Shown here piece by piece: positions 5,788 through 64,000 of a stretch of 64,000 nucleotides of DNA. Origin of the DNA: an uncultured Alphaproteobacteria bacterium (GTDB lineage Bacteria; Pseudomonadota; Alphaproteobacteria; CAAGCB01; CAG-977). A program made the translations under genes and the position numbers. The stretch spans positions 11,165-75,164 of the forward strand of contig CALYBD010000005.1 of the NCBI GenBank assembly GCA_944393745.1. The letters run 5' to 3'. How positions within the stretch are numbered: the first letter of the stretch is position 1; the number at the start of each line of letters is the position of its first letter. The notes under the pieces were generated by a model. It saw nothing but the letters and a program-made list of their open reading frames with translations, was not told the DNA's origin and searched no databases.

Positions 5788-5866
5788 TTATTTTCCTTTT
5801 ATCTTCTTGCAAAACAACTGGCAGTCTATCTAAATAAGAGAAGATATTCAACTTTTATCGGGGACA

Positions 5867-23393: not shown

Positions 23394-24164
23394 ATGCCAA
23401 CTCCGGTAAAATCAAAACAACAGCTGACAGTGAAAACGCCTGAAAACAACCCGGTTCAAAAGGGTTCCGTTTCCGGCGGATCCAATTTGAAAAAAAATGT
23501 TGTTCGTCAACCCGAACGTGAAGAAATTTCAATTGATCAGCTGCGGGAACGGCGTTATTTGTGGACGGCGCGGGCTTTTGCAATCGTGTCGGCCGTGGCG
23601 TTATGCGTTAATTTGGTTTTGTTGTTGGCGATTATTCATATTATGCCGCTGAAACGCGTTGAACCGTTTTTGCTGACGTTTCAGAACAGAGACGAACAGG
23701 TTGTAAAAATTCGTCCTTTGGCAAAGGATATGGCGGCGGAAGATATTATTTCCGAAGCCATGATCAGACAGTATGTGTTGTTAAGAAATACGATGATTTC
23801 GGACGTTGACGAGATGTCTTTCCGTTGGGGGCAGGACGGTCCTTTGCGCTGGATGTCTTCGGCGCAGGTGTATAACCAGTTTGCCAAAACGGTCAAGGAT
23901 TGGCTGTCAAGAATTAAACTGGAAGGCTTAACGCGCGAAGTCCGAATTGAATCCGTTGTTCGAAATCAAAACATCTGGCTGGTTTATATTGTGACGCGCG
24001 ATATGCTGCCGGAAGCCGAAGAACCCGCTATTTCGCGTTGGCGTATCCGTTTGTCGGTCAAATACTTTGCCAAAGATCAAAAAGAAGTCAAATATATTGA
24101 CCGGTTAAAGAATCCTTTGGGGTTTGCCGTTGACGGATATGCGATTGAAAGTGCTAACGATTAA
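23394..24164 (+). CDS. virB8: T4SS VirB8-like protein, paralog 2
   Basis: TM helix (AFAIVSAVALCVNLVLLLAII) and C-terminal RLKNPLGFAVDGYAI. An EAMIRQYV region parallels paralog 1 (EMFVRQYV). Confidence 0.75.
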   Translation: MPTPVKSKQQLTVKTPENNPVQKGSVSGGSNLKKNVVRQPEREEISIDQLRERRYLWTARAFAIVSAVALCVNLVLLLAIIHIMPLKRVEPFLLTFQNRDEQVVKIRPLAKDMAAEDIISEAMIRQYVLLRNTMISDVDEMSFRWGQDGPLRWMSSAQVYNQFAKTVKDWLSRIKLEGLTREVRIESVVRNQNIWLVYIVTRDMLPEAEEPAISRWRIRLSVKYFAKDQKEVKYIDRLKNPLGFAVDGYAIESAND

Positions 24165-24176
24165 AGAAGGTGTCCC

Positions 24177-28700: not shown

Positions 28701-31700
28701 TCGGTGTCGACGGCCAGATTGTTGACAAAGACGGGAATCCCGTTTTAGGTCCCGACGGAAAGCCTTTGCGTTATCGTGCCGGCGGTTCTGTCGTTGAAGA
28801 CGGCGGAGAAGTGATCGGAAAAATCGGCGAGACTCTGGAACGTCTGGTTTATGATGAAAACGGCAATGTGATCGGCCGGGTATTGCCGGACGGAACGGTC
28901 GTTGATTTGGAAGGCAACGTGATCGGCACGATGCGTCCGGACGGCACGGTGGTGGATAAAGACGGCAATGTGATCGGCAGGGCAGGTCAGCCGGAACGTC
29001 TGGTTTATGATGAAAACGGTAATTTAATCGGTCGCGTATTGCCGGACGGAACGGTCGTCGATCTGAAAGGCAACGTGATCGGCCGTGTTCAGGACGACGG
29101 TACGGTGACGGCTTTGGGCTCTAAAGTGATCGGCTATACGGTCAAAGACGGTCTGGGACTGAACTTTAAAAATGAAATTATCGGTAAAATCAATTCTTCC
29201 GGTCAGCTTAAAGAACCCGGTTCGGATAAATCTTTGGGTTTTTTGCAGGCAGATGACACCATTACGGACGCAACGAATACCGTTATCGGCAAAGGGGTTG
29301 TTAATGCCGTTCCCATTGGTCTGCAATGTCAGATGCTGGGGACGATTGACGATAACGGGCAGGTTATTGATACAACGGGACGGCAGATCGGCCGGCTGAA
29401 TTATGATCGTTCTTTGGTTAATGCTTCGAATGCTCAGATCGGTTTGGCTTTGGGGCAGGAATCCATTATTAATGAACCGTGTGAGATTATCGGGCAGATT
29501 ACGACCGAAGGAAAAGCAGTCGATACCAAAGGTCAGGAAATCGGCTGTGTTGATTTTGAAGGGCTGGTAAAAGATAAAAACGGAAAACGACTGGGACGAA
29601 TCGTTCAGAAAGGACAGGTGCGCGGCCCCGATGATCAGATTATCGGCAGGATCGTTGCCAACGGTGAAGCGTTGGGATCTCAGGGGGACGTGTTAGGGTG
29701 TTTTTCGATTGACGGTGCCGTTTTGGATAAAAATAAAAAAATCCTGGGGGTTTCTGCCGACATGAAATATGCCATTGACGATCAGGGGAAAGTCATTGCT
29801 CATATTTTGGGCGGCACGTACGGCGTTAATCCTGCAGGCGGATCTTTTGTCGGTATGTTAAACGGGCAAAATCTGATCGGCGCAGAAAATCGTCAGTTGG
29901 GCGTACTTGTTCCTGCCGGCAGAAAAGTCATTGCAACGGACGGTAAGATTGTCGGAACCGTTCTGCCGCGCGGGCAGGTTCATAATGACCGCGGAGAAGA
30001 TGTCGGTTATGCCACTTCGTCCATGCGAGTTTTAACCGCAGATCGTAAATTTTTGGGACGCGTCGTCCCGATCGGCGAAGAATGTAAAGACGGTAAAAAC
30101 AACGTTGTCGGTACCGTCCACTTTGACGGCACGATTATTGACGAAAGAAAACAGGTCTTAGGACGTTTGCTGGCCAGCGGCCAGGCTTTGGACAATTCCG
30201 GTGCTCATTTATGTATGATTTCTTTGATCAGTACAAATGATGACGGGTCTTTGTTCCCGAAAGGGTTGATCGGAAAAATGGTTTACGGTCCGGACGGAAA
30301 GCCGTTGGGTGTTATCGGTGAAGACGGGTTTATTCGTGATGCAAACGGTAATATTATCGGACGTGTTTTGCCGGACGGCACGGTCGTCGATTTGGACGGC
30401 AACGTGATCGGCAAGGCTTATCCGAAAGGGGCTGTTTTCAGTCCTGACGGTAAATTTTTGGGTATTGTTGACGCAGACGGGTATTTGCGGGACGAAAACG
30501 GCAATATCATCGGCAGAATGTTGCCGGACGGTACCGTTGTCGATATGAACGGTAACATTATCGGCCGGGCTTTGCAGGAAGACGGTATTGTCGATTCAAA
30601 AGGGAATTTCCTGACAAAAGCAGGCGAAGACCGTTTGGTTTATGATGCCAACGGCAACGTGATCGGACGTGTTTTGCCGGACGGTACCGTTGTTGATTTA
30701 AAGGGGAACGTTATCGGCAGAATGTTGCCGGACGGTACGGTCGTTGATGCAAACGGCAATGTGATCGGTCGGGCGGGGCCGCCCGAGCGTTTGGCCTATG
30801 ATGCGAACGGCAATGTGATCGGTCGGGTATTGCCGGACGGTACCGTTGTTGATTTTAAAGGCAATGTAATCGGAAGAGTACAGCCCGACGGGACAATTGT
30901 TGATGCGACCGGGAAAGTTATCGGTCGGGCCGGGCCGCCTGTTGAGGCAAAAAATGTTCGTATTGCTGTCGGGCGTGACGGTAAATTTTTGGGTGTTGTC
31001 GGTGAAGACGGTCTTGTCCGTGACGAAAACGGCAATGTGATCGGCCGGGTATTGCCGGACGGAACGGTTGTTGACATGAACGGAAATGTAATCGGTTCTG
31101 TGATTGAAGGAGAACCGATGCGTGATGCAAACGGCAATATTATCGGTGTTATCATGCCGGACGGCCGCGTTGTTGATTTAGACGGCAATGTGATCGGTCG
31201 CATTAATGCAAACGGGGAAATCGTTGATGCGGACGGAACGGTTTTGGGCACATGGCGCGGCGGGAAACTGACGGCAATGAGCGATAAGCTGCAGAAAAAA
31301 CGTTTTGCGTTCGGCAAGGACGGCAAAAGAATCGGTATGATTATGCCGGACGGAACGGTTGTTGATGAAAACGGCAATATTATCGGTCGCGTTGATGAAG
31401 ACGGTAATGTGGTCGATTTAGACGGCAACATCATCGGGACGGTTGAAGAACCGTCTGCGGGAGGGCCGGCAGAAGAAGATAAAAAAGAAGGCAGTGTTTC
31501 CATTTTTGGTGCTTTTGATCCGGAAAATTACCGGTATCGCGGTAAATCTTTGGGATCCGGCGGCGGTACGGGAAAAGGGGAACGTTATGATCCCGCCCGC
31601 ATAAAACAGCTTCGGGCATTGCAATTGGCTTATCGTCGTCAGATCAGACCCGGACGGGGGATCGGCATTGCCTCGACCGAAGAAGATTTGCTGAAAAAGC

Positions 31701-32728
31701 AAAAACGCAGCAAAAGTTGGGCTGATTTGGGTGTGCTGAAGAATGTATCATCATATCGTGTCAATATGGATAATATGATTTTGGCGGATAAAGCCATACC
31801 GGCCGTTTTGGCGCGTTCCATTGATACGGAACAGGAAGATATTCCCATTTCCGCAATTGTTGAACGCAACATTTATTCGGAATCGGGACGTAAAATTATT
31901 ATTCCCGCCGGCAGCCGTGTTATTGGCGAACTCAGCGGTTCTTCGGCCAGTGAAGAAGTCGGAGCGGCTTCAAAAGTCGAAATTTCCTGGACACGCCTGA
32001 TTCGTCCGGACGGTGCGGCGTTCCAGTTTGACGAAGGATCTTCGGGTGATGCTTCCGGTCGTGCGGGCGTCGGCGCGTATATGGACCGACAGTTGATGAA
32101 GAAATACGGACTGCCGATGGTTCAGTCGACAATTACTTCTGCAATTTTGTATGCCATGGCAACGGATGACGCGGCCGAAGTCGGATCAGAAGGTGAAGTT
32201 GCCATGTCGGGTCGTCAGCAGGCGGCTGAAGATGCACGTACCAGATTTTCCGATACGATGCAGCAGATTTTTGATGATATCATCAGTGAAACGTCACAGT
32301 TAAAAACGCGCTTGTTTGTTCCTTCCGGTACACGAATTACGATTTTTGCAAACGCGGATTTATGGCTGCGCAGTGAAGCAGAAGATGAAGATGAAGCGTC
32401 TATCGGCAAGAAAGATGTTTTGATTGATCCAGATAAAGATGATGACAGAAATGTTGTTGATGATCCTTCTACGATTTCTTCGGGTACGACGACTCCGCAT
32501 GATCCGAACGCTCAAAATGTCCAAAATGATCCAAATAACTTGCAACAACAGCAGCAAATTTACTATAATAATTATGCTGGTCAGCAGGCGCCGCAACAGC
32601 AACAGCCTCCGCAGGGCAGATTGATCGACAGTAATAAGCAGCAACAACAACAGCAGCAGCCACTTCCGCCGCCGATTATACAGGAAAAGAAAGAAGAACC
32701 GGTTGATCCCGTTCCCGAACTTTTCTAA
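25703..32728 (+). CDS. virB10: Giant T4SS VirB10-like protein (about 2,340 aa): N-terminal TM anchor, a beta-rich domain, an internal repeat array of about 1,700 aa, a canonical VirB10/TrbI C-terminal domain, and a Q/P-rich tail
   Basis: Likely ATG at 25703 overlapping the virB9 stop (ATGA); the track starts at the GTG at 25682. TM helix LLIVGIIAFLAFLTGVIVLL. The C-terminal block IIPAGSRVIGELSG...KVEISWTRLIRPDGAAFQFDEGSSGDASGRAGVGAYMDRQLMKKYG matches the conserved VirB10/TrbI signature (IPAG-R-IGE...W-RLI-PDG....G.D..GRAG..G). Confidence 0.8.
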   Translation: MNEDLLSSSDRYLKKSNRTLLIVGIIAFLAFLTGVIVLLSGEEERKKDAEVTIEGSAESSSSIVGGDADTFSLPEEATASTVRLVVTPETMRFDQVVLGTMAEGTLTLSASSGRISVTAIEFENKQEDGFVLENKCRKDIVLTGDVTCNVVVRWEPKTARTIQSNLAVRWTDETFGGIGRKVIVPISAMAIDTSMCGVCDEVPGSSGSMLDQLRQKGRVILGPDGKPIGYADENGVVYGLDGKRIGTLREDGTVVDDQGYVIGVAEGSRIAIGPNGEILGTILPDGRVIDKDGRLIGYALPDGTIVDENGNVIGSAIKTGIAYDKNGNPIGRIMPDGTVVDDEGNVIGYVNPDGTIVDANGNIIGSVAPQGTVVDASGKPLGIVMPDGTVVDADGNIIGRTLPNGFVVDRDGNIIGRVVKEGLAIGPGCRMIGRISTDGSVMSSNRQVGRLTASMTVVDMAGNPIGGYVEEGALIDWAGKIIGKVDQDGHPVSFKGDPLGCLTPYGTVVNDSEEIIAAVLPKGTVVGTQCGVVGRVMPDGSVVGDGQIKGRILPDKSFLSTEGKIAGALARQNVGVGPGCMSLGYVNLDGQVMTAKGELVGCLAANGEILDNQKVVLGKILDSAVAINPDGRVVGVMDPVGRIQDKEGKILGCADPDGLVINSKNESVGIMMPTGGVLDRDGRTIGWVMPDGSVSNGKNSTVGKVMPDGTVIDLTGQTVARVAPYKGLALRGSCEPVGNVLIDGRVVDNEFKRTAYIRMDDSLANEAGDFVGRIAYGARGISAKDVYLGATGNDGTLYNPAGEKIGCLRPDSLFVDAENKFLGAALPEGVAVNDKSELYARGDSIAKALDLKGSEFIGSVTLSGFIKEGDRISGGIIPDRADVLDIKTSEKIGRLLPDGTALDLLSRYLGRLRMPSGEIVNKDGRVVGKIFVGMRQVIGPNGEILGVVMPDGTVVDASGRVIGKADLNGKVVDKDGRVIGEVIPVGQPIIGPDGKIIGYVGVDGQIVDKDGNPVLGPDGKPLRYRAGGSVVEDGGEVIGKIGETLERLVYDENGNVIGRVLPDGTVVDLEGNVIGTMRPDGTVVDKDGNVIGRAGQPERLVYDENGNLIGRVLPDGTVVDLKGNVIGRVQDDGTVTALGSKVIGYTVKDGLGLNFKNEIIGKINSSGQLKEPGSDKSLGFLQADDTITDATNTVIGKGVVNAVPIGLQCQMLGTIDDNGQVIDTTGRQIGRLNYDRSLVNASNAQIGLALGQESIINEPCEIIGQITTEGKAVDTKGQEIGCVDFEGLVKDKNGKRLGRIVQKGQVRGPDDQIIGRIVANGEALGSQGDVLGCFSIDGAVLDKNKKILGVSADMKYAIDDQGKVIAHILGGTYGVNPAGGSFVGMLNGQNLIGAENRQLGVLVPAGRKVIATDGKIVGTVLPRGQVHNDRGEDVGYATSSMRVLTADRKFLGRVVPIGEECKDGKNNVVGTVHFDGTIIDERKQVLGRLLASGQALDNSGAHLCMISLISTNDDGSLFPKGLIGKMVYGPDGKPLGVIGEDGFIRDANGNIIGRVLPDGTVVDLDGNVIGKAYPKGAVFSPDGKFLGIVDADGYLRDENGNIIGRMLPDGTVVDMNGNIIGRALQEDGIVDSKGNFLTKAGEDRLVYDANGNVIGRVLPDGTVVDLKGNVIGRMLPDGTVVDANGNVIGRAGPPERLAYDANGNVIGRVLPDGTVVDFKGNVIGRVQPDGTIVDATGKVIGRAGPPVEAKNVRIAVGRDGKFLGVVGEDGLVRDENGNVIGRVLPDGTVVDMNGNVIGSVIEGEPMRDANGNIIGVIMPDGRVVDLDGNVIGRINANGEIVDADGTVLGTWRGGKLTAMSDKLQKKRFAFGKDGKRIGMIMPDGTVVDENGNIIGRVDEDGNVVDLDGNIIGTVEEPSAGGPAEEDKKEGSVSIFGAFDPENYRYRGKSLGSGGGTGKGERYDPARIKQLRALQLAYRRQIRPGRGIGIASTEEDLLKKQKRSKSWADLGVLKNVSSYRVNMDNMILADKAIPAVLARSIDTEQEDIPISAIVERNIYSESGRKIIIPAGSRVIGELSGSSASEEVGAASKVEISWTRLIRPDGAAFQFDEGSSGDASGRAGVGAYMDRQLMKKYGLPMVQSTITSAILYAMATDDAAEVGSEGEVAMSGRQQAAEDARTRFSDTMQQIFDDIISETSQLKTRLFVPSGTRITIFANADLWLRSEAEDEDEASIGKKDVLIDPDKDDDRNVVDDPSTISSGTTTPHDPNAQNVQNDPNNLQQQQQIYYNNYAGQQAPQQQQPPQGRLIDSNKQQQQQQQPLPPPIIQEKKEEPVDPVPELF
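26350..31450 (+). repeat. In-frame tandem repeat array inside virB10: on the order of 100 units of about 17 aa (consensus LPDGTVVDxxGNVIGRx, two G-x-(V/I)-(V/I) half-units), with higher-order units of about 50 aa
   Basis: Visible directly in the translation (for example RVLPDGTVVDLKGNVIGRMLPDGTVVDANGNVIGRAGPPERLAYDANGNVIGR...) and at DNA level, with related copies at 28848-29085 and 30625-30950. The repeat generates many spurious antisense ORFs. Confidence 0.9.
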
Positions 32729-32746
32729 ATTGAAAAGGATATTGAA

Positions 32747-33724
32747 ATGAGTATGGATTCTTTTCAGGTTTTAAGATCGACATTGCGTTATCTGTCATAT
32801 TGGTATGAACAAGATAACGTCGAAGAAGTCGCGATTAACCGTCCGAACGAAATTTGGTTGCGTTTGCGCGGACGCAGGGCTCATCCTTGGGCATGCCAGC
32901 AGGACGCCAATCTGTCCAGAACGTATCTGACGGACATCATGCATATTATCGCCAACACGTTTGAACTGCCGTTTGATCCCGAACAGGGATCGCCGGCCGT
33001 GTATGCCACGCTGCCGGGCGATCACCGTTTTACGGGAATTGCGGGCAAAAACGTTATGTATGATAACGAGGATCTGACCGGCGGTATTGCCATGTGCGTT
33101 CGTGTTCATTCCGATGATGTGAAATTCGGATTGGGGGATTACGGCCTGAAATCGGGGGAACGCCTGCAAAAGCTTAATAAATTGAAAGAAGTTGAAAATC
33201 CGGAAGATCCGTATGAACGCCTGATTTTATCAATTAAGCGCGGCGACCATATTTTGGTTTCCGGGGCAACGGCAACCGGTAAAACGACATTTTTGAATAA
33301 CCTGCTGACCATTTTGGATTCGCATAAACGGGTAATTACGATTGAAGATACCCGCGAATTAATTGTGCCGCATCCCAACCATGTACATTTGGTGTTATCG
33401 CGTACGGAACAAACAAACACAATGACATATCCGAAATTGATTGACCTGGTTGTTCGTTTTACGCCGGATGCGATTATCGGCGGGGAAATTTCAACGGCTA
33501 ATGCCGGGGCGTTGTGGGAATTGATGGGATCCGGGCATGACAACTGCTTTGCGACAATTCACGCCGAAAATTCCGAAGCGGCCTATAAAGCGTTTACGGA
33601 TCGTATTCTGCATTGCTATCCGACGATTGACCGTGAAAAAACAATTGCCGAAATGCATGATAAGCTGCGGGTGGTTCAGATCAATCGTCAGGGAAATATC
33701 CGTGCCGTGACAGAAGTGACCTAA
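32747..33724 (+). CDS. virB11: T4SS ATPase VirB11 (traffic ATPase)
   Basis: Walker A GATATGKTT, Asp box IEDTRELIV, His box GSGHDNCFATIHA; 325 aa; directly downstream of virB10. Confidence 0.85.
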   Translation: MSMDSFQVLRSTLRYLSYWYEQDNVEEVAINRPNEIWLRLRGRRAHPWACQQDANLSRTYLTDIMHIIANTFELPFDPEQGSPAVYATLPGDHRFTGIAGKNVMYDNEDLTGGIAMCVRVHSDDVKFGLGDYGLKSGERLQKLNKLKEVENPEDPYERLILSIKRGDHILVSGATATGKTTFLNNLLTILDSHKRVITIEDTRELIVPHPNHVHLVLSRTEQTNTMTYPKLIDLVVRFTPDAIIGGEISTANAGALWELMGSGHDNCFATIHAENSEAAYKAFTDRILHCYPTIDREKTIAEMHDKLRVVQINRQGNIRAVTEVT

Positions 33725-54047: not shown

Positions 54048-55627
54048 CACTGCTGTCCGTTCAAAATTTAAGCGTACGTTTCGGCCCAAATCCGCCGGTG
54101 GTTGACGGCGTGTCTTTTCAAATTGCCAAAGGAGAAACGTTGGCCTTGGTCGGTGAAAGCGGATCGGGAAAGTCGGTAACGGCATTGTCGATTATGCAGC
54201 TGTTGGATTATCCGTATGCGTCGCACCCGTCGGGATCAATAAAATTCAACGGTCGCGAGCTGATCGGCGCAAGTGAATATGTTTTGCGTGATTTTCGCGG
54301 TAATCGGGCGGCAATGATTTTTCAGGAACCGATGACATCGCTGAATCCGCTGCATACTATAGAAAAACAGGTGGCAGAAACAATGATTCTGCATGCCGGC
54401 ATGACAAAAGACGACGCGACAGAACAGGTAAAAGAATTGTTGGAATTGGTCGGTTTGCGTGATGCAGACCGGCGTCTGAATGCTTTGCCCCATGAATTAT
54501 CCGGCGGTGAACGTCAGCGTGTGATGATCGCCATGGCTTTGGCCAACAAGCCCGATTTGCTGATTGCCGATGAACCGACAACGGCTTTGGACGTAACGGT
54601 TCAGGCACAGATACTGAATTTGCTGTCTTCGTTGCAAAAAAAACTGGGGTTGGCCGTTTTGTTTATTTCTCATGATCTGGACGTTGTGGCGCGGGTGGCT
54701 TCGCGCGTTTGTGTGATGAAAGACGGTCGGATTGTCGAAAGCGGGTCAAGCGAAACGGTTTTAAAAAATCCGTCGCATGCATATACGAAAATGCTGGTCG
54801 CTTCCAAGCCGTCCGGGATTCCCGTCGGCAGCGCAAAAAACGCATCGGATTTGGTCAGAGCGGAAAATGTAAAAGTTTCGTTTGTTTTGAAAAAAACTTT
54901 TTTCGGGCAGGCATTGTCGGTTTTAAATGCGGTTGACGGCGTTGATCTGAAAATAAAGGAAGGCCAGGCCGTCGGTCTGGTCGGCGAAAGCGGATCGGGA
55001 AAATCGACGTTGGGATTTTCGTTGTTAAAATTACAAAAAGCCGGCGGCAAAATTATTTTCAACGGAACGGACATAACCGGTTTAAAAGGGGAAAAATTGC
55101 GCCGGTTAAGAACGCAGATGCAGATTGTTTTTCAGGATCCTTATTCTTCGCTCAGCCCGCGTTTGACGGTGGAACAAATCATTGCCGAAGGGTTGAATGT
55201 TCACCGGCGCGATTTAACGGCGGATCAGAAAAAAGCACTGATCGAACAGGCGGTAAAGGACGTCGGTTTGTCAACGGATATTTTAAACCGTTATCCGAAT
55301 ATGTTTTCGGGCGGCCAGCGTCAAAGAATTGCTTTGGCGCGTGCGTTGGTGTTAAAACCGCGTCTGATTGTTTTGGACGAACCGACCAGCGCTTTGGACG
55401 TTACCGTTCAGGCGCAGATGATAGAGCTTTTGAAAAATTTGCAAAAACAGTATAAGATGGCTTATCTGTTCATCAGTCACGATATGCGCGTTGTCAAAGC
55501 TTTGGCCGAATATATCTATGTGATGAAGGACGGCCGTATCGTTGAATCGGGAAAAAATCCCGATTTGTTTGAAACCCCGCAGCAGCCGTATACCCGTCAA
55601 TTAATGGCCGCCGCATTTGATTTTTAA
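54044..55627 (+). CDS. yejF: Dual-ABC-domain ATPase (YejF-like)
   Basis: Two Walker A motifs (GESGSGKS twice), two LSGGERQR/FSGGQRQR signatures, two Walker B motifs (IADEPT/VLDEPT). Confidence 0.9.
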   Translation: MTLLSVQNLSVRFGPNPPVVDGVSFQIAKGETLALVGESGSGKSVTALSIMQLLDYPYASHPSGSIKFNGRELIGASEYVLRDFRGNRAAMIFQEPMTSLNPLHTIEKQVAETMILHAGMTKDDATEQVKELLELVGLRDADRRLNALPHELSGGERQRVMIAMALANKPDLLIADEPTTALDVTVQAQILNLLSSLQKKLGLAVLFISHDLDVVARVASRVCVMKDGRIVESGSSETVLKNPSHAYTKMLVASKPSGIPVGSAKNASDLVRAENVKVSFVLKKTFFGQALSVLNAVDGVDLKIKEGQAVGLVGESGSGKSTLGFSLLKLQKAGGKIIFNGTDITGLKGEKLRRLRTQMQIVFQDPYSSLSPRLTVEQIIAEGLNVHRRDLTADQKKALIEQAVKDVGLSTDILNRYPNMFSGGQRQRIALARALVLKPRLIVLDEPTSALDVTVQAQMIELLKNLQKQYKMAYLFISHDMRVVKALAEYIYVMKDGRIVESGKNPDLFETPQQPYTRQLMAAAFDF

Positions 55628-55639
55628 CGGATAAAGAAA

Positions 55640-55987
55640 ATGACACAGGAACAGGAAAATGAAGATTTAAAAGAAACCGTTCTTCAGCGTGTGTTCGGCG
55701 ACGAAGCGTTGATGGGCGTTAATGTTGATCTGTCCGTTGTTTTGGGGCGGACGCTTTTGCGGGTTTATCAGTTGTTGAAGCTGGGGCGCGGCGCTGTTGT
55801 CGAACTTAACCAGCTGTTAAACGAACCCGTTGAGATTTTGGCAAACGAAATCCCGATTGCCAAAGGGGAAATCATTGTTACGGACGAAGGATACATCGGT
55901 GTTAAAATTACCGATTTGATGATTTCCCGCAAAGGATCGGACGGATCGCTGATCAGTAAATCGGCAGTCGGTTCTTTTGGCAAATAA
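55640..55987 (+). CDS. fliN: Flagellar motor switch protein FliN (SpoA domain)
   Basis: VDLSVVLGRTLLRVYQLLKLGRGAVVELNQLLNEPVEILANEIPIAKGEIIV matches the FliN SpoA pattern. Confidence 0.75.
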   Translation: MTQEQENEDLKETVLQRVFGDEALMGVNVDLSVVLGRTLLRVYQLLKLGRGAVVELNQLLNEPVEILANEIPIAKGEIIVTDEGYIGVKITDLMISRKGSDGSLISKSAVGSFGK

Positions 55988-55995
55988 AGCGATAC

Positions 55996-56433
55996 TCAGG
56001 AAATTGAAGTGTCTGTCGACAAGGAACGCAGGGCTCTGATCCGGCGGCACAGCGATTGAATGATGTTTCTTTCCAGCGCCTTATGTTCATTCATCAGTCG
56101 GTACAAAGCCGGACCGGAAATTTTAAATAAAGTCGAATCTTCCAAAGCGGTAACGGTTATATCGGCCTGCACCGGATCCAAAGCGGCCAATTCGCCAAAG
56201 ACTTCCAACGCATTGCATTCCCGAAGGGTTTGGCCGTTTTTATGAAAGCGAACTTGTCCTTGCAAAATAATATACATATCATTCCATTCACTGCCTTCTT
56301 TGATAATATCCGTACCGATCATGGCGGCTGTTTCTTCGCTGGCAGCGATAATATCGGACAATGCGGCTTCGGGAATGCCGGCAAACAGCGGAATATTTTT
56401 TAAGATCAGAACTTTTTCAAGCGTTAAGCGCAT
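55996..56433 (-). CDS. Cyclic-nucleotide-binding-domain protein with no DNA-binding domain
   Basis: An LKNIPLFAGIPEAAL start and an FGELAAL phosphate-binding cassette-like motif. Start chosen at MRLTLEK; the ORF track extends to 56499. Confidence 0.65.
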   Translation of the reverse strand: MRLTLEKVLILKNIPLFAGIPEAALSDIIAASEETAAMIGTDIIKEGSEWNDMYIILQGQVRFHKNGQTLRECNALEVFGELAALDPVQADITVTALEDSTLFKISGPALYRLMNEHKALERNIIQSLCRRIRALRSLSTDTSIS

Positions 56434-56446
56434 AATTGACAACTCC

Positions 56447-59269
56447 TTAAAAAACAGTTTGGCCCGTTCCGTCAATAATAAAGCGGGCAGTTCGGGCAAC
56501 GCCGCTGGCCGGATCCGTCAGACAGCCGGCAAGCAAACGAGAAGATTCTTCACGCGGCAGAATTTGTCCGATGGCCCATACGGCCGTTTCCCGTACGATC
56601 GGATCCGGATCGTCCAATAAAGCCGTTAAACTGTTGACGAACGAGATTTCTTTGATATTGCCGGCGCTATAAGCGGCACATGCACGCGTCCAATCCGTCA
56701 GCTCTCCTTTCGGCGTGTCCAAAAGATCGCGGATATGTCCGTCAACGGAAAGAACGGGCGGAAAGAAATGCGGACGCAGTAATGCCAGCTGCTGGCGGAC
56801 AGTCTTTTTTTCAAATAAAGGCAGGCAAAGCGTTCTGAGTTCGCCGGATAAGATTTTATCAACGATTTTTATCGTTTCATTGCTTGTTTCGTCCGCACCG
56901 GCGGCATAACGGCGGTCCAGAAATTCTCTGATGGCAGCGGAAGGCTGTAACAATGCCAGCAAAAGCAAGATGCGTTCTTTGATATATTCTATTTCGCCGG
57001 TTAAAGCGGATTTTAAAATTTCCAAAGATTCCGCATGATCCGGATTGTCGTCTTTGTCAAATACGCTGACAGCGGCCAACAGCCCCGTTGCCGTTTCAAT
57101 TTCATCATACAGACACAAACGGACGGCATTGACGTTTTTGCCGACAGCCTTGCTGCCGGATAAAACCAGCGATTTGGCAATGTTGAAACGAATTTCCCGA
57201 TCTTCGATTCGAATGTGCTTAAACAGGAATTTTTCCGATTCCGGCGAAGAAATTCGGCTGACCACACGTGTCAGCAGGATTCGGAATTGAACGGGGTAAT
57301 CCTTACTTAACAAAACAGTTTCAATTTGCCGAAAAGCTTTTTCACCGAATTGCAACAAAACATCAACGCCGCTTTCACGCAGTTCCGGAAAACGGAATGT
57401 TTCCATCACGGCGGGCAATAAGCGGGGATTTTGCAGTTTTCCCGCGGCGTCCAGTGCGGCTTTGCAAACGGAGATATCTTCATCGTTCAATAAATGAATC
57501 AACGGATGATAAAACGCCGGATTGCCGGCATTGCCCAAAACAACGGCGGCCAGCAGTCTGTCCGCGGGATCCTCCGATACAGCCAAAGATGCCGTTCGTT
57601 CAATGGCAACGAAGACGCCTTCTCGTCCGACGGCCAGCAGTCCGGCCAGTGCTCCGGCACAGACGTCCCGGTCATTAATTAAATCAACGGCTTTGTCGCG
57701 TGCTTCCTCTCCGCCCAGACGACACATAACACGTAAAGCCGTCCGGCGCACGTTCAAACTTTCGTCATTTTGTACCATCAGTTCCACAAAGCCGACCGCT
57801 TCGTAAAACTTTAAAGATTCGATTTTTGCCAGCGCATACAGGCGGACATCTTCGTTTTTGTGATGCAATGCCCGTTCCAAGCAATCAAAGAAAATCGGAC
57901 TTTGAGCTTCTTCCAAAGCGCGCAGAGCGTATAAAACTTTTTGTGTATCCGAATCGGCAAGACAGGACGTCAGATATTTTGAAACTCTTTTTCCCGTCAG
58001 CAACAGCCGGCCGCCGCGCCATAAATACGATTTCAGCATATTTAAAATCAAACGCAGGTATACGCGGCGCATGATCAAAACAGCAACGAAAACAATAACA
58101 GCCAGCATTGTCATAACGTAAATCAGAATCTGTTCTGCCATTTTGTTTTCCGCATACCAGACAAACACCCCGCACAAGGCCATTGCAAACGGTTCGACCA
58201 CGGATTTGCGCAACATGTTTGCCCGGAATCCCGTGCGCAAAGAAACAGCCAAAGGAATAGTTAAAAGGGTGGATTCTCGTGCTTCGGGGGCTGCCAGATC
58301 CAAAACGGCTTTGCCCGCGGCAATCAGCCCGAAAATTGAAAACCAGCCGCCGCCGGCCGCTGCCAGCAAAGCAACAGGAATGACGTACAACAAGAAAAAG
58401 GGAGAGAGTTTTCCTTTGGCCGATAACTGCAGCAAAGCGAAACTCAAAACCGCCGTTAAAGCAAAAACGACACTGTAAACGTTCGCCATTTCCGCCGGTC
58501 GGTTTTCATACGTCAGGGCGGTCAGACTCAGGAAGTAATAATTGAAAAGGCCTGCGGCAAAAAATAACAGCCCGGATAAAACATAAAAGCAAAGATATAT
58601 TTCCCGCTGGACGGAATCGCTGCCGGATCGTTTGATTTTTTGTTTGCGGAAAGCCGGTTTTTCCACAATCGGCATGGCTGTATCGGCGATTAATGTGTTT
58701 AATGTGAATGCTGCGGCAAAAGTAAAGACGGCCGACCAAAGCATTAAACTGTCCAGCAGGGCGTTCGGCGTTAAACGGATCAGTCCCGCCGCACATAAAA
58801 CGGCAAAAGCCTGGGCGGTTAAAATGAAAAGAAGCTTTTTGGATCGGCCGTTGAAAACACCGAAACGAAAAGCGGCAACCCAGAAAACCGTTTCCGCAAT
58901 AATTTTAAATCCTTCTTTCCATACCATGGCGCCCGCATAGATCAGCGGTTCGGCCGTTAAAAAAGAAAGCGCATAAAAAATAAGGCTGATCACGCCGGCG
59001 ATAAAAAGAATAACGGCCAGGCGTCCGGCTTTTTTCCCGCGTAAAGTTGCCAGTCCCGGCCAGATCAGAAAAAACAATACGGCCGTTGCGATAAAAATTT
59101 GCGCAATATTGTGTCCCGAATAGGCGTTTAAAAACAAAACGGAGGATCCGGCGTCCAAAGAAACAACGGCGAACGTTTTAAAAAACGAACATAAAACCAA
59201 TAAAACGGCCGGCAGAATTTCCTGTACCGACAGATAAGCGTCCGTTCCTAATTTTTTTATGCGAGCCAT
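56447..59269 (-). CDS. Fusion protein: an N-terminal multi-TM transporter-like domain (TLC/Npt ATP:ADP-translocase-like) plus about 500 aa of C-terminal HEAT repeats
   Basis: About 12 TM segments in the first 420 aa. The N-terminal pattern EILPAVLLVLCSFF...LDAGSSVLFL...IFIATAVL parallels the TLC-family N-terminus. PBS-lyase-type HEAT repeats (DPDPIVRETAVWAIGQI, NEDVRLYALAKI). The start ATG overlaps the ftsY stop. Confidence 0.55.
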   Translation of the reverse strand: MARIKKLGTDAYLSVQEILPAVLLVLCSFFKTFAVVSLDAGSSVLFLNAYSGHNIAQIFIATAVLFFLIWPGLATLRGKKAGRLAVILFIAGVISLIFYALSFLTAEPLIYAGAMVWKEGFKIIAETVFWVAAFRFGVFNGRSKKLLFILTAQAFAVLCAAGLIRLTPNALLDSLMLWSAVFTFAAAFTLNTLIADTAMPIVEKPAFRKQKIKRSGSDSVQREIYLCFYVLSGLLFFAAGLFNYYFLSLTALTYENRPAEMANVYSVVFALTAVLSFALLQLSAKGKLSPFFLLYVIPVALLAAAGGGWFSIFGLIAAGKAVLDLAAPEARESTLLTIPLAVSLRTGFRANMLRKSVVEPFAMALCGVFVWYAENKMAEQILIYVMTMLAVIVFVAVLIMRRVYLRLILNMLKSYLWRGGRLLLTGKRVSKYLTSCLADSDTQKVLYALRALEEAQSPIFFDCLERALHHKNEDVRLYALAKIESLKFYEAVGFVELMVQNDESLNVRRTALRVMCRLGGEEARDKAVDLINDRDVCAGALAGLLAVGREGVFVAIERTASLAVSEDPADRLLAAVVLGNAGNPAFYHPLIHLLNDEDISVCKAALDAAGKLQNPRLLPAVMETFRFPELRESGVDVLLQFGEKAFRQIETVLLSKDYPVQFRILLTRVVSRISSPESEKFLFKHIRIEDREIRFNIAKSLVLSGSKAVGKNVNAVRLCLYDEIETATGLLAAVSVFDKDDNPDHAESLEILKSALTGEIEYIKERILLLLALLQPSAAIREFLDRRYAAGADETSNETIKIVDKILSGELRTLCLPLFEKKTVRQQLALLRPHFFPPVLSVDGHIRDLLDTPKGELTDWTRACAAYSAGNIKEISFVNSLTALLDDPDPIVRETAVWAIGQILPREESSRLLAGCLTDPASGVARTARFIIDGTGQTVF

Positions 59270-60198
59270 CAGACCTCCTTTTCCGTCAGTCCCATCAGGG
59301 ATCGGGCATAATCCCGGGCTTTAAACGGTTGCAAATCGGTGATTTGTTCCCCGACACCGATCAGATATACGGGTAATTTAAATTCGTCGGCCAGCGCAAT
59401 GGTCACACCGCCTTTGGCCGTACCGTCCAATTTTGTTAAAACCAGTCCCGTGACGGGGATCATTTCGGAAAAAATTTTAACTTGGGAATGAGCGTTCTGA
59501 CCGACAGTCGCGTCCAAAACCTGCAGACAGGCATGCGGCGCATCGGGAATTTGTTTTTTTATGGTGCGAATGATTTTTTGTAATTCTTCCATCAGTTCCG
59601 ATTTGTTTTGCAGTCGTCCGGCCGTATCGATAAATAAAACGTCATCATTGTTTTTGCGCGCTTCGGTCAGCGCGTCGAACACCAGTCCGGCCGCATCTGC
59701 GCCTGTCGGGCGGGAAACAACGGGACAGCCCGTGCGTTCTCCCCATATTTTTAATTGTTCGACGGCTGCGGCTCTGAAAGTATCGGCGGCCGCAAAGCGA
59801 ACTTTGAGCCCTTTGGATTTGTATACATAAGCCAGTTTGCCGATCGTTGTTGTTTTCCCCGCGCCGTTGACGCCGGCCATTAAAATAACAAAAGGCTTTC
59901 GGGTCGGATCGATTTTTAATTCCTGCGCATAAGGCGCCAGCTTTTCTGCGATTTTATCGGCAAAGAAAGAGCGAACTTCTGCGGAATCGACTTCTTTGTC
60001 AAATTTTTCTTTGGCCAGTTCGGCGGTCAGATCGGCGGCCGTTTTCGTTCCGACGTCTGCCATAATCAGCAGATCCTCAATGTCGTTCAGCGTTTCTTTA
60101 TCAAGCTTTTTTTTGGTCAGCAAACCGCCGATTCCCGAAACCAGCGGCGCGGCGGTGCGCGATAATCCTTGCTTTATGCGTTCAAACCAGCCCGACAT
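59269..60198 (-). CDS. ftsY: Signal recognition particle receptor FtsY
   Basis: NG domain motifs: GVNGAGKTTT, DTAGR, TKLDG. Confidence 0.9.
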   Translation of the reverse strand: MSGWFERIKQGLSRTAAPLVSGIGGLLTKKKLDKETLNDIEDLLIMADVGTKTAADLTAELAKEKFDKEVDSAEVRSFFADKIAEKLAPYAQELKIDPTRKPFVILMAGVNGAGKTTTIGKLAYVYKSKGLKVRFAAADTFRAAAVEQLKIWGERTGCPVVSRPTGADAAGLVFDALTEARKNNDDVLFIDTAGRLQNKSELMEELQKIIRTIKKQIPDAPHACLQVLDATVGQNAHSQVKIFSEMIPVTGLVLTKLDGTAKGGVTIALADEFKLPVYLIGVGEQITDLQPFKARDYARSLMGLTEKEV

Positions 60199-60201
60199 TT
60201 T

Positions 60202-61413
60202 TTAAAGAACGCTCCCTTCAAAAATTCCTGTTTGCTTTATTCCCGTCAGCCGGACGGGGATAAACTCTCCTGCTTTAAAGCGGCCGGCAACGTGTACGTT
60301 CAGATAATGTTCGCACAGTCCTTTTTGGTCTGTTTCATACAACACAACGGCCGTTTGCCCTATTCTGCCCCGCATATATTCAAAAAGCAAGCGTTCTCCG
60401 GCGTCTCTTAATATTTTCGCCCGTTCTTTGCGTACGGGGACGGGAATCTGCGGCATTTTGGCAGCCGGCGTTCCCGGTCGCACGGAGTACGGAAAAACGT
60501 GCAGATGCGTCAGGCCGGCCGTTTCCGTCAGATCAATCGTATTGCGGAACATTTCGTCTGTTTCCGTCGGAAAGCCTGTAATAAAATCGGCGCCGAAAAC
60601 AATATCCGGCCGTGCGGCGCGCAGTTTTTGACACAAGGTCAGAATATCCTCGCGCGTATGCCGGCGGGCCATGCGTTTTAAGATCATGTTATCGCCGGAC
60701 TGGGCGGACAAATGAACGTGCGGCTGTAAAATATCGGACCGGCCGAACAGAGAAATCAGATCATCGCGGATACATGCCGGATCAAGCGATCCCAGCCGCA
60801 GCCGTTTAAGTCCGTTGATTTTTGTCAAGGCTTCGACCAGCTTTGCAAAATCGGGATAATCCGTGATCTCAACGCCGGTCAGGTTAATTTCGGCGTATCC
60901 CCGATCAACCAGTTTTCGGGCGTGGTTTAAAATTTTTTGTGCCGGCAGATAAACGCTTTTGCCGCGCGCCTGCGGGACGATGCAAAACGTGCAGTGATTG
61001 TTGCAGCCCTGCTGGATTTGAATAAACGCCCGGCAGCGCCCGTCAAAGAAAACGGGTTCCGGCGCTTTAAAGTCAACGGGCGTGTCAAGTCCGGCGGCCA
61101 GAACGGCAGGTTTTTCGGGCGTGAAGTTGTCGGCGTTCAGCTTTTCCCGATTACCTAAAACGCGATCGACTTCGGGCATTTGCGCGTAAAGTTCGGGGTG
61201 AACCTGGGCGGCGCAGCCGGTAACGACCAGATAAGCGTCCGGGTGTTCGCGGCGCAGTTTTCGGATCATTTGCCGGCACTGACGTTCCGCTTCGCCCGTT
61301 ACGGCGCAGGTGTTAACAATAACGATATTGTCCGGCAGGCCGCTCATTTCCTGTATGGCGGCGGATTCATAAGCGTTTAAGCGGCAGCCGAAAGTAATAA
61401 TTTGCACGGGCAT
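60202..61413 (-). CDS. mtaB: MiaB-like radical-SAM methylthiotransferase (MtaB-type)
   Basis: An N-terminal MTTase domain with a Cys triad and a radical-SAM motif (CNNHCTFCIVP). Upstream of ftsY, the arrangement I recall as usual in alphaproteobacteria. Confidence 0.8.
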   Translation of the reverse strand: MPVQIITFGCRLNAYESAAIQEMSGLPDNIVIVNTCAVTGEAERQCRQMIRKLRREHPDAYLVVTGCAAQVHPELYAQMPEVDRVLGNREKLNADNFTPEKPAVLAAGLDTPVDFKAPEPVFFDGRCRAFIQIQQGCNNHCTFCIVPQARGKSVYLPAQKILNHARKLVDRGYAEINLTGVEITDYPDFAKLVEALTKINGLKRLRLGSLDPACIRDDLISLFGRSDILQPHVHLSAQSGDNMILKRMARRHTREDILTLCQKLRAARPDIVFGADFITGFPTETDEMFRNTIDLTETAGLTHLHVFPYSVRPGTPAAKMPQIPVPVRKERAKILRDAGERLLFEYMRGRIGQTAVVLYETDQKGLCEHYLNVHVAGRFKAGEFIPVRLTGIKQTGIFEGSVL

Positions 61414-61522
61414 GATGTATCCTGAATTTTAAACAGCGGCTAACTTAACAAAAAACAAACTGCGGAGCAAACAATTGCTGTTAAATTTTTTGTTTTTATC
61501 GGCGAAAAAGAGTCTTTCTGTG

Positions 61523-61551
61523 TTGACTCCGCCTTGTTAAAAGGATATAAA
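61523..61551 (+). promoter_or_regulatory. Sigma70-type promoter candidate upstream of ffh
   Basis: TTGACT, a 17 nt spacer, then TATAAA; reads toward ffh. Confidence 0.45.
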
Positions 61552-61663
61552 AAAACCTGATTTCATATAGGTTTTAACAGCCTTATGCCTCTAAGGAGGT
61601 CCGTCTGCCGGTGAAGGTACGCTCACAGACGCCTTTTTTGTGTGCATGGGGGACAAGGGAAAA

Positions 61664-63052
61664 ATGTTTGATACTTTGGCAGAAAAATTAGGCGGCGTGT
61701 TTGACCGTCTGGCACGCAGGGGCGCTTTAAGCGAGGCCGATGTCGATGCGGCTATGCGCGAAATCCGCATTGCGCTGCTGGAGGCCGATGTCGCTTTGCC
61801 CGTCGTGAAGGATTTTGTCGCCAAAGTCAAAGAGCAGGCTGTCGGCCAGGCCGTTATTAAATCCGTTACCCCGTCACAGATGGTTGTCAAAATCGTTCAT
61901 GACGCTTTGAAAGAAATGTTGGGCGGGGAAAATGCCGCGCTGGATCTGGCCGCCGTTCCGCCCGTACCGGTTTTAATGGTCGGTCTGCAGGGATCGGGAA
62001 AAACAACGACGTCGGCCAAGCTGGCCTTGCGTCTGAAAAAGGAAAAAAAGAAAGTATTGCTGGCCTCTTTGGATATTTACCGACCGGCGGCACAAGAACA
62101 GTTGGCTCAATTGGGGCGCCAGATCGGAGTCAGTACGCTGCCCGTCATTATCGGCGAAAAGCCCAAAGCGATTGCACAGCGCGCCATGACCGAAGGACGT
62201 ACCGGAAATTATGATGTCGTTATTCTGGATACGGCCGGGCGGCTGCATATTGATCTGGACATGATGGGCGAAGTGGCCGAAATCCGCGCGCTGGTTCAAC
62301 CGAAGGAAACGCTTTTGGTTGTTGACGCGCTGGCCGGACAGGACGCGGTAAATATTGCACGCGAATTTAACGATAAAATCGGCGTGACGGGCATTATTCT
62401 GACTCGTATTGACGGCGATTCGCGCGGCGGGGCGGCTTTGTCGATGCGCGCGGTGACGGGGCGGCCGATCAAGTTTTTGGGGGCCGGCGAAAAAGTTGAA
62501 GCGTTGGAACCTTTTCACCCGGATCGTCTGGCCGGCCGTATTTTAGGCATGGGCGACGTTGTTTCTTTGGTGGAAACGGCGGCCGAAAAAATGGATAAGG
62601 ACGAGGCGGAACGCGTTGCCAAACGCATGATGGACGGCCGCTTTGATTTAAACGATATGCTTTCGCAGTTGCGTCAGATGCAAAAAATGGGCGATTTAAA
62701 GGGGTTGCTGGGTATGTTGCCGGGAATCGGTAAATTTAAGGCACAGCTGGACGCAGCCAAAATCGACAATAAGGTTTTTAAACGGCAGGAGGCGATCATT
62801 CTTTCCATGACACCTCGGGAACGCCGTAATCCGGATATCATCAAAGCGGCGCGCAAAAAACGCATTGCCGCGGGGTGCGGTTTGTCCGTTCAGGACGTCA
62901 ACAAGTTGTTGAAGCAGTATGAACAAATCGCGGATATGATGAAAAAAATGAAAAAAATGGGTCATCGGGGACTGTTCGGGGGTCTGCCCGGCGGTTTCGG
63001 CGGCGGAAACGGGACGGGAGGTTTTCCTCCGTTCGGCGGTTTTTCGTCATAA
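61664..63052 (+). CDS. ffh: Signal recognition particle protein Ffh (SRP54)
   Basis: The canonical MFDTLAEKL start; GLQGSGKTTT, DTAGR and TRIDGD motifs; an M-domain with a Met-rich C-terminus. Confidence 0.9.
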   Translation: MFDTLAEKLGGVFDRLARRGALSEADVDAAMREIRIALLEADVALPVVKDFVAKVKEQAVGQAVIKSVTPSQMVVKIVHDALKEMLGGENAALDLAAVPPVPVLMVGLQGSGKTTTSAKLALRLKKEKKKVLLASLDIYRPAAQEQLAQLGRQIGVSTLPVIIGEKPKAIAQRAMTEGRTGNYDVVILDTAGRLHIDLDMMGEVAEIRALVQPKETLLVVDALAGQDAVNIAREFNDKIGVTGIILTRIDGDSRGGAALSMRAVTGRPIKFLGAGEKVEALEPFHPDRLAGRILGMGDVVSLVETAAEKMDKDEAERVAKRMMDGRFDLNDMLSQLRQMQKMGDLKGLLGMLPGIGKFKAQLDAAKIDNKVFKRQEAIILSMTPRERRNPDIIKAARKKRIAAGCGLSVQDVNKLLKQYEQIADMMKKMKKMGHRGLFGGLPGGFGGGNGTGGFPPFGGFSS

Positions 63053-63092
63053 AGCAGACAGTAATTTAATTTTTAAAGTGAGGTAATAAAAT

Positions 63093-63488
63093 ATGTCAGT
63101 TCGTATCAGACTTGCCCGCGGCGGATCGAAAGGAGCTCCTTTCCATAAGATCGTTGTGGCCGACCAGCGCGCACCGCGCGATGGCCGTTTTATTGAACGT
63201 GTCGGTTCTTACAACCCGTTGTTGCCGGCGGAACACGCCGAACGCGTTGTTGTCAAAGCCGACCGGATCAAGTATTGGTTGGGTGTCGGGGCTCAGCCGA
63301 CCGAACGCGTTGCAAAGCTGTTGTCCAAAATGGGGCTGTGCGCCGCGCCGGTAATTAATGACCGGCCGAAAAAATCAGCGCCGAAGGCAAAGGCTCAGGA
63401 ACGCGCAAAGGCGAAGGCCGAAGCTGCCGCCGCCGCTGCTGAAGCTGCTGCTCCGGCTGCGGATTCTGCCGAACCGGCCGAAGCTTAA
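63093..63488 (+). CDS. rpsP: 30S ribosomal protein S16 with an Ala/Lys-rich C-terminal extension
   Basis: [24 protein letters not shown]... is the canonical S16 N-terminus. Confidence 0.9.
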
Positions 63489-63511
63489 TTTCTTTTAAGG
63501 AAGAAAACGGC

Positions 63512-64000
63512 AATGACAGTTTCCGGGGAACGTAACAATCTGGTTTGCGTGGGCGTCATTACGACGGTTCACGGCGTGCGCGGAAATGTCAAAGTCAAAA
63601 GCTTTACACAAAAAGCGGCTGATTTTGCCGGTTTTGGGGCTTTATGCGATGCTGCCGGCAAGCGTTCGTTTAACGTAAAGATCATCGGGGAAAGCAAAGG
63701 AATTTTTCTGGTGCAGATTGACGGGATAACGGACAGAACGGCGGCCGAAGCACTGCGGGGAACAGAGTTGTATGTTTCCCGTGATAAATTGCCCGAAACG
63801 GCGGAAAACGAATTTTACTATACGGATTTAGTCGGCATGACGGCAAAATCGCCGGACGGTAAAGTTCTGGGACAGGTTAAGGCTGTTTATAATTTCGGCG
63901 CGGGGGATATGCTGGAAATCAACGGTGTGGACGATTTTGTTTCGTTTTGCGATCAAAATATTCCCGATGTTGATTTGAAAAACCGCGTGATAACGGTCTG
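63512..64000 (+). CDS. rimM: Ribosome maturation factor RimM, partial; runs off the right edge of the window
   Basis: LVCVGVITTVHGVRGNVKVKSFT is the RimM N-terminal motif. Standard ffh-rpsP-rimM order. Confidence 0.8.

Follow-up and report, generated by a model that had tools for sequence, protein, structure and literature searches.

Fusion proteins that combine a nucleotide-transporter (NTT)-like membrane domain with a HEAT-repeat domain form a monophyletic group, which is 'very broadly conserved' in bacteria, free-living ones included (Major, Embley & Williams 2017, Genome Biol Evol 9:480, PMC5381601). A gene of Chlamydia trachomatis, cyanobacterial proteins annotated as 'PBS lyase' and oomycete proteins of the type NTT-HEAT-cNBD are examples, where cNBD stands for a cyclic nucleotide-binding domain. 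In many cases a cNBD gene lies behind the NTT-HEAT gene 'at a distance of several nucleotides', or the cNBD is fused to it. The function of these proteins is unknown, and the copy of C. trachomatis is uncharacterised (PMC5381601). No functional study of NTT-HEAT was found in the literature after 2017; two further papers merely use the term. The supplement of PMC5381601 lists nothing under Acetobacter, CAG, Rhodospirill* or Azospirillum, and the gut Alphaproteobacteria treated here were not found there. The locus described here lies in a stretch of 64,000 nucleotides (contig CALYBD010000005.1; in the following, the window) from an uncultured alphaproteobacterium. It consists of a gene for a protein of 940 amino acids, which adjoins ftsY, and a gene for a protein of 145 amino acids on the same strand. 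The locus is the published NTT-HEAT(+cNBD) architecture, with the cNBD encoded by a separate gene. An earlier note on this DNA had called the arrangement unusual, which does not hold in view of the 2017 publication, and had overlooked the cNBD gene.

We interpret the two genes together as one divergent member of the family of NTT-HEAT(+cNBD) modules, that is, as a permease with HEAT/cNBD regulation that has shifted in its clade, and assign a probability of about 0.6 to this explanation as a whole. The family identity and the anatomy of the module are highly probable. The regulated-permease mechanism, for which we infer transport and gating from fold and architecture, falls slightly short of even odds. 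With the published proteins, the locus shares the domain order (12-transmembrane (TM) NTT-like domain first, HEAT repeats behind it, both on a single polypeptide), a cNBD that is encoded a few nucleotides downstream (13 in the window) or fused, homology of the N-terminal membrane domain (N-domain) at the profile level, and the cNBD as the sole conserved neighbour. Unlike other NTT-HEAT(+cNBD) proteins, the 940-aa protein and its subclade have no match to PF03219, the partner cNBD of the ftsY-linked members lacks the phosphate-binding Arg, evolution is faster in their membrane domain than in HEAT, and the module is set in an mtaB-ftsY operon with an overlap of start and stop codon.

The earlier note had assigned the N-domain to the TLC family and had proposed to check this with PF03219 (TLC) and MFS models. 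Both were negative: residues 1-433 alone had no Pfam match of any kind at E<=10, PF03219 and MFS_1 (PF07690) included, and the whole protein matched neither of the two at E<=1, HEAT-type repeats being all that Pfam recognised in it. The respective gathering cutoffs are 21 and 33.4 bits. A distant TLC ancestry nevertheless stands. A word-indexed search with the single N-domain sequence returned only 3 fragmentary relatives, and an index-free HMMER search was needed. This profile search of 1.84e9 representative proteins yielded 39 relatives, nearly all with a length of about 930-960 aa. Among the 33 relatives scanned, HEAT_2 was present in all, PF03219 in 13, and MFS_1 (E<=0.01) in 11; the ten closest relatives matched neither PF03219 nor MFS_1. 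For ten relatives individual scans are shown. Here, three of four TLC matches passed the cutoff (P0015, P0025 and P0030, with 26.5-38.8 bits), compared to two of six MFS_1 matches (P0025 with 37.9 and P0021 with 33.7 bits).

A profile of 23 N-domains, compared with the PDB at E<=10, gave a sole match, the Arabidopsis plastid ADP,ATP carrier NTT1 (AtNTT1; 9j3j_A, E 3.1e-5). By means of hhalign, the N-domains of the gut clade were aligned with those of broader NTT-HEAT proteins over 439 columns (Prob 99.5, E 7e-23), and the latter with single-domain PF03219 proteins over 411 columns (E 2e-38); the direct comparison of the gut clade with single-domain PF03219 proteins gave Prob 86 and E 5e-6. An AlphaFold2 (AF2) model of the membrane domain based on the 23-sequence alignment has 12 TM helices in a 6+6 arrangement (pLDDT 84.7, pTM 0.85), in agreement with the multi-TM region noted earlier; a model from a 4-sequence alignment reached a pLDDT of 41.7 and was discarded. 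With Foldseek, AtNTT1 was the best match (9j3l_A, E 1.2e-7, and 9j3m_A, E 7.9e-7; TM 0.68-0.69), yet the identity is only about 14%. Ordinary MFS transporters ranked behind it, with E-values of about 1e-5 and TM 0.52-0.60. Because of the exclusive PDB match, the chain of profile alignments, the 12-helix model and the best fold match, the membrane domain, judged by profiles and a predicted structure, derives from the TLC/NTT branch of the MFS fold, with very strong divergence. It shares the 12-TM MFS-type fold with the characterised PF03219 transporters (AtNTT1, PDB 9j3j/9j3l/9j3m; Rickettsia Tlc1; Chlamydia Npt1/Npt2). In contrast to these, the 940-aa protein lacks the canonical motifs, carries an additional HEAT domain of 500 aa, has a partner protein, and comes neither from an organelle nor from an obligately intracellular organism.

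A generic MFS permease that is unrelated to TLC and was fused to HEAT by chance would agree with the MFS_1 matches in 11 of 33 relatives, whose E-values are similar to those of their TLC matches, with the name 'MFS transporter' that one relative has at NCBI, and with the many MFS transporters returned by the fold search. This explanation can be nearly excluded: NTT1 is the sole sequence match in the PDB and accounts for the top two fold matches, the broader family aligns with single-domain PF03219 proteins as given above, and the MFS_1 gathering cutoff was reached in a smaller fraction of the individual scans than that of TLC. Note that two of the sequences are probably chimeras due to assembly or frameshift and not real architectures. 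P0002, an ENA metagenome protein of 672 aa, combines an N-terminal ion-transport-like segment (PF00520) with the TM4-TM12/HEAT part of a close homologue and a scrambled C-terminus; the C-terminal end of P0001 is unrelated sequence.

The canonical TLC motifs (a Lys in TM1, FW.F.ND in TM4, VsT..D in TM7 and KYKAKA.ID..V.R in TM11) are not conserved in a three-group alignment. Their remnants are FW in TM4, P298 and some basic residues close to TM11; at such a distance, the residue-level alignment is uncertain. At about the position of the TM1 Lys, the protein contains Asp39. The acidic D-G motif that had been read as a TLC pattern is real and conserved in the clade as D39-x-G41 inside TM1; it is not a TLC signature, as canonical TLC proteins have the Lys there. 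Further residues conserved in the clade in or next to TM helices are K31, E126, E332, R345, R354, K355, E359 and P360. A set of charged residues in or near TM helices, and likewise the segment LWRGG, are conserved to at least 92%. Both termini are presumably cytoplasmic; in the loops TM2-3, TM4-5, TM6-7 and TM8-9, basic residues are present as expected from the positive-inside rule. Among the best-kept stretches of the fast-evolving membrane domain in the gut clade are residues 197-217 in the cytoplasmic TM6-TM7 loop (NGSAP...K.SG) and residues 416-427 after TM12 (LWRGGRLL.TGK). Either segment might be a site at which the HEAT/cNBD module makes contact.

These findings bear on the proposal of the earlier note that the protein scavenges host nucleotides. 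According to this idea, it would be a genuine importer of ATP/ADP or nucleotides in a host-dependent bacterium, with the HEAT domain as an anchoring or regulatory module. The distant TLC/NTT ancestry is real, the organisms are gut-associated, and basic residues (R345, R349, R354, K355) persist around TM11, roughly at the canonical KYKAK cluster. We consider the proposal improbable, since NTT-HEAT-cNBD proteins are widespread in free-living bacteria and no member of the fusion family has been characterised, and all characterised NTTs belong to another subfamily (PMC5381601). Besides the negative PF03219 result and the missing canonical motifs, the sources speak against it: the relatives are from rumen, faecal and human-gut metagenome-assembled genomes (MAGs) of Alphaproteobacteria and from free-living lineages. 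The genome does not look strongly reduced. Other products of the window include FliN, a YejABEF-like ABC importer, homoserine dehydrogenase, RecJ, TrkH, adenosine deaminase and a type IV secretion system, and no markers of an obligate intracellular lifestyle were seen among the proteins encoded in it. The earlier note had named two observations that would speak against its idea, a generic-transporter score of the N-domain and a wide occurrence of the fusion in free-living bacteria. The second of these is on record, because the fusion was described in 2017 as widespread in such bacteria (PMC5381601).

The C-terminal ~500 aa had been described as HEAT repeats of the PBS-lyase type. HEAT repeats are indeed present: in Pfam, HEAT_2 scored 104.7 bits in 5 stretches and HEAT 54.9 bits (residues ~430-930). 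The PBS-lyase label is only loosely right, as HEAT_PBS (PF03130) reached 15.2 bits on the 940-aa protein and thus stayed below its gathering cutoff of 20.9. The lyase/NblB equivalog models of NCBIfam were far under their cutoffs (NblB 39.1 vs 300, CpeY 21.5 vs 600, CpcE 16.5 vs 330). The protein is therefore not assigned to the PBS-lyase HEAT proteins (CpcE/F, CpeY, NblB), whereas the generic HEAT_2 assignment is strong. Designed AlphaRep proteins were its only sequence matches in the PDB.

The 145-aa protein has no DNA-binding domain and aligns along its length with the cNBDs of PKG and PKA. Its gene adjoins the NTT-HEAT gene in each of the 24 alphaproteobacterial loci that are complete and, with few exceptions, in the distant loci, including relatives that are not linked to ftsY. 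Neighbour clustering of 19 distant loci identified the cNBD as the sole recurrent neighbour. With PKA/PKG regulatory domains, CRP/FNR sensor domains and the cNBDs of the channels SthK and MloK1, the protein shares the signature of the fold and the FGE motif. In contrast to these, it contains Ala and Asp instead of Arg and Ser/Thr, which corresponds to a charge reversal at the phosphate site. More specifically, the Arg position of the window cassette FGELAALDPVQADITVTA is occupied by Ala90 and the next residue is Asp91, with FGE retained; the intact cassette FGE...PR[ST]A is absent from the window partner. An HMMER alignment with Plasmodium PKG cNBDs from the PDB gave the same replacements, R->A and S/T->D, as independent support. 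The phosphate-binding Arg is gone in every ftsY-linked partner examined (window, L055, L057, L061); the cassettes of the latter three read ...SPYQSEVAISA in L055, FAELTALAPDIVDVSVVA in L057 and FGATYAFDPAPINLTISA in L061. Every non-ftsY-linked partner examined keeps FGE[LM]AALDPEPR[SMA]A. Domains of the CRP/FNR type without this Arg often have non-cNMP ligands or no ligand (cNMP, cyclic nucleoside monophosphate).

Four same-strand genes, mtaB, ftsY, the 940-aa gene and the 145-aa gene, are closely packed on the minus strand (Table 1). The stop codon of mtaB is 3 nt from ftsY. At the junction of ftsY and the 940-aa gene (GAGGTCTGATGGCT), TGA and ATG share one base. The earlier note had stated an ATGA overlap; the overlap exists, with TGATG as the actual sequence, and the implication of coupling is therefore the same. 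Coordinates and junction also confirm that the 940-aa gene belongs to the mtaB-ftsY operon and is tightly coupled. The 145-aa gene follows 13 nt past the stop codon of the 940-aa gene, with GGAG in front. Identical calls of these two genes were found on 11 independent metagenome contigs. No RNA family was detected with Rfam at positions 55000..64000 (E<=0.1), and promoter-like and terminator-like sites across the operon were at or under shuffle expectation, so that nothing points to a promoter or terminator within it. Because of the tight packing and these negative results, the simplest reading is that one transcript would extend from mtaB through the 145-aa gene.

Table 1. Positions of the features in the window.
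Feature	Position	Strand	Basis or remark
mtaB, radical-SAM methylthiotransferase, 403 aa	60202..61413	-	Pfam UPF0004 + Radical_SAM; first gene of the operon
ftsY, signal recognition particle (SRP) receptor, short NG-type, 309 aa	59269..60198	-	SRP54 GTPase domain 239 bits + SRP54_N
TGATG junction, ftsY stop / ATG of 940-aa gene	59267..59271	-	one base shared
940-aa ORF (open reading frame), NTT-HEAT protein	56447..59269	-	window translation
Membrane domain, residues 1-433, 12-TM, MFS-fold, NTT/TLC-like, highly divergent	57971..59269	-	family profile, hhalign, AF2, Foldseek
HEAT-repeat solenoid, cytoplasmic, residues 434-940 + stop	56447..57970	-	HEAT_2, HEAT; starts after post-TM12 motif LWRGGRL
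GGAG ribosome-binding site of cNBD gene, within 13-nt spacer	56443..56446	-	sequence reading
Stand-alone cNMP-binding-fold protein, 145 aa	55996..56433	-	PF00027 53 bits, E 3.5e-14
Degenerate phosphate-binding cassette of cNBD, residues 79-96, FGELAALDPVQADITVTA	56146..56199	-	alignment with non-ftsY-linked partners + Plasmodium PKG cNBDs
FliN/SpoA-domain protein, stand-alone, 115 aa	55640..55987	+	PF01052 66 bits
Type IV secretion cluster	23394..33724	+	
VirB8	23394..24164	+	
VirB9/CagX	24177..25706	+	
Giant ORF, 2348 aa	25682..32728	+	PF21785 452 bits
VirB11	32747..33724	+	
Adenosine deaminase, 424 aa	37636..38910	-	equivalog models
'Mitochondrial fission ELM1' protein, 326 aa	47533..48513	+	PF06258 272.6 bits, full-length

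A scan of species-representative genomes yielded 26 loci with 33-66% identity from uncultured Alphaproteobacteria of human gut, rumen, horse faeces and comparable sources, among them 'Acetobacter sp. CAG:977' as well as MAGs with UMGS, RGIG and UBA names. More weakly related proteins were found in Desulfobacteraceae, Pyrinomonadaceae, Pseudomonadales, Myxococcota and Chloroflexota. The order mtaB-ftsY-[TM-HEAT]-cNBD is kept in all 24 complete alphaproteobacterial loci, and mtaB lies upstream of ftsY in all ftsY-linked loci. The ftsY stop codon overlaps the TM-HEAT start codon in 20 of the 24, as ATGA in 12 and by 1 nt in 8; a gap of 9-12 nt with a ribosome-binding site occurs in 3 and a distance of 661 nt in 1. 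Most orthologous loci have the layout TAAGGAG...ATG before the cNBD gene. Gene order and overlap recur in three far more divergent subfamilies (P0016/L055; P0017/L061, 'Alphaproteobacteria bacterium'; P0020/L057), whose FtsY proteins are 51-56% identical to that of the window and whose flanking genes differ. The locus with the long distance, L026 from a horse faeces MAG, is the most divergent one of the gut clade. Its 661-nt insert (about 5320..5980) between ftsY and the TM-HEAT gene seems to contain a separate gene for a small protein, and yejF and fliN are located upstream of mtaB, not downstream. Locus L014 (CAVCSV010000018.1) is labelled 'Limosilactobacillus gorillae' and contains the alphaproteobacterial mtaB-ftsY-[TM-HEAT]-cNBD-fliN-yejF block, 43-76% identical to the window; this MAG was probably binned or labelled wrongly.

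None of the scanned proteins with ftsY linkage matched PF03219. In neighbour-joining (NJ) trees, the ftsY-linked subfamilies group as one clan, with bootstrap values of 74/100 for HEAT alone and 100/100 both for the N-domain and for the full length, although these trees are based on simple distances and fast N-domains could group by long-branch attraction. The clan nests among NTT-HEAT proteins. The ftsY-linked clade is a monophyletic, previously undescribed and diverged variant of NTT-HEAT(+cNBD).

Within this clade, the N-domain is the fastest-evolving part: identities to the window protein are 27-65% for the N-domain, 39-71% for HEAT and 52-79% for the cNBD. The N-domain is less identical than HEAT in 99% of pairs, compared to 44% in the rest of the family. 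Furthermore, the ratio of nonsynonymous to synonymous substitution rates (dN/dS) is 1.3-2.3 times higher in the N-domain (0.14-0.26) than in HEAT (0.07-0.15). The gene family is not decaying, and purifying selection acts on all parts; ORFs of 930-963 aa are intact in 24 species.

The different rates speak for the main rival explanation, a non-transporting, membrane-anchored HEAT scaffold or sensor ('transceptor') that, together with the Arg-less cNBD-fold protein, would recruit or regulate cytoplasmic partners. Such a role would also suit the loss of the ancestral ligand site of the partner and the clustering of conserved residues on the cytoplasmic side, namely in the R135-F-G-x-F loop, from S343 to P360, and in LWRGG after TM12. 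However, the full 12-TM MFS fold is kept and was modelled with confidence, the dN/dS values of the N-domain still correspond to strong purifying selection, and the conserved intramembrane charges K31, E126, E332 and E359 would be unexpected in a pure anchor. We therefore regard the scaffold as an unlikely alternative to a regulated permease.

A regulated permease could work as follows. The large protein very probably sits in the inner membrane, with the N-terminal 12-TM domain embedded and the C-terminal HEAT solenoid of about 500 aa in the cytoplasm. The cNBD-fold protein, presumably translated from the same mRNA, most likely binds to the HEAT domain, since a cNBD is fused to the C-terminus of HEAT in L033, L046, L048 and P0021 from other lineages (Rosetta-stone logic). 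The membrane domain would act as a solute permease, which the cytoplasmic HEAT/cNBD module gates or tunes in response to a small-ligand signal. This module seems to have shifted in the ftsY-linked clade, where the partner lacks the Arg for the cyclic phosphate and the membrane domain lacks recognisable TLC motifs. Because of these losses and the faster evolution of the membrane domain, the sequences suggest that neither cAMP nor cGMP is likely to be the ligand, and that the membrane domain probably does not carry out the ATP/ADP exchange known from Rickettsia, Chlamydia and plastids. The coupling to mtaB-ftsY would provide constitutive, stoichiometric co-expression with a housekeeping operon.

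Several points weigh against this interpretation. For no NTT-HEAT member has a substrate or ligand been demonstrated, neither in PMC5381601 nor in a later functional paper that we could find. The faster evolution of the membrane domain fits a reduced role, for example as a membrane anchor, equally well as a changed substrate. Moreover, the contact between HEAT and cNBD is suggested by a single argument, the Rosetta-stone logic. To these must be added the missing Pfam match of the isolated membrane domain, the missing TLC motifs, and the susceptibility of the NJ trees to long-branch attraction.

The position next to ftsY allows for a further explanation. The ftsY-linked module might have been repurposed and have given up nucleotide transport and cNMP sensing, so as to serve as a membrane HEAT platform that is functionally tied to the SRP receptor. 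For example, it might tune FtsY docking or co-translational membrane-protein insertion in response to a non-cNMP ligand. A role of this kind would account for the persistence of the ftsY start/stop overlap across lineages in which FtsY is only ~50% identical; nevertheless, we judge it highly improbable, and the coupling may persist simply because compact operons are inherited vertically. We also downgraded the idea that the 940-aa protein is required as a membrane tether for the short FtsY, as FtsY starts with a GWFERIKQGLSRT segment. We take this segment to be a likely amphipathic membrane-binding helix of FtsY itself.

The architecture itself has been known since 2017 (PMC5381601). New is the ftsY-linked subclade, whose scanned members lack a TLC match in Pfam and which has a faster membrane domain and an Arg-less cNBD. 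The link of its genes to the NTT-HEAT family is invisible in databases, because they are generically named 'hypothetical protein', 'MFS transporter' or 'HEAT repeat domain-containing protein'. The clade can be seen as a natural experiment on the NTT-HEAT-cNBD module: as HEAT and the cNBD fold are constrained while the Arg is lost and the membrane domain drifts past recognition by Pfam, it speaks for the HEAT-cNBD pairing, and not ATP/ADP exchange, as the conserved core of the system. It also cautions against taking TLC-like domains as markers of energy parasitism. The value of these findings is incremental, and they do not open a long-standing question to direct test.

Several other genes of the window deserve mention. 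The gene of the stand-alone FliN/SpoA-domain protein directly follows a yejF-like ABC ATPase gene and is convergent with the cNBD gene, with 8 nt between the stop codons; the yejF-fliN pair is kept next to the operon in most gut-clade loci. The 326-aa protein that matches 'Mitochondrial fission ELM1' over its full length is encoded here in an alphaproteobacterium. The equivalog models of adenosine deaminase span residues ~8-355, and a C-terminal extension of ~70 aa is unexplained. Within the type IV secretion cluster, the giant 2348-aa ORF contains ~10 five-fold beta-flower repeats and RHS repeats, and its C-terminal part (residues 2033-2229) is a TrbI/VirB10 domain. A VirB10 protein of this size, decorated with beta-flower and RHS repeats, is unusual.

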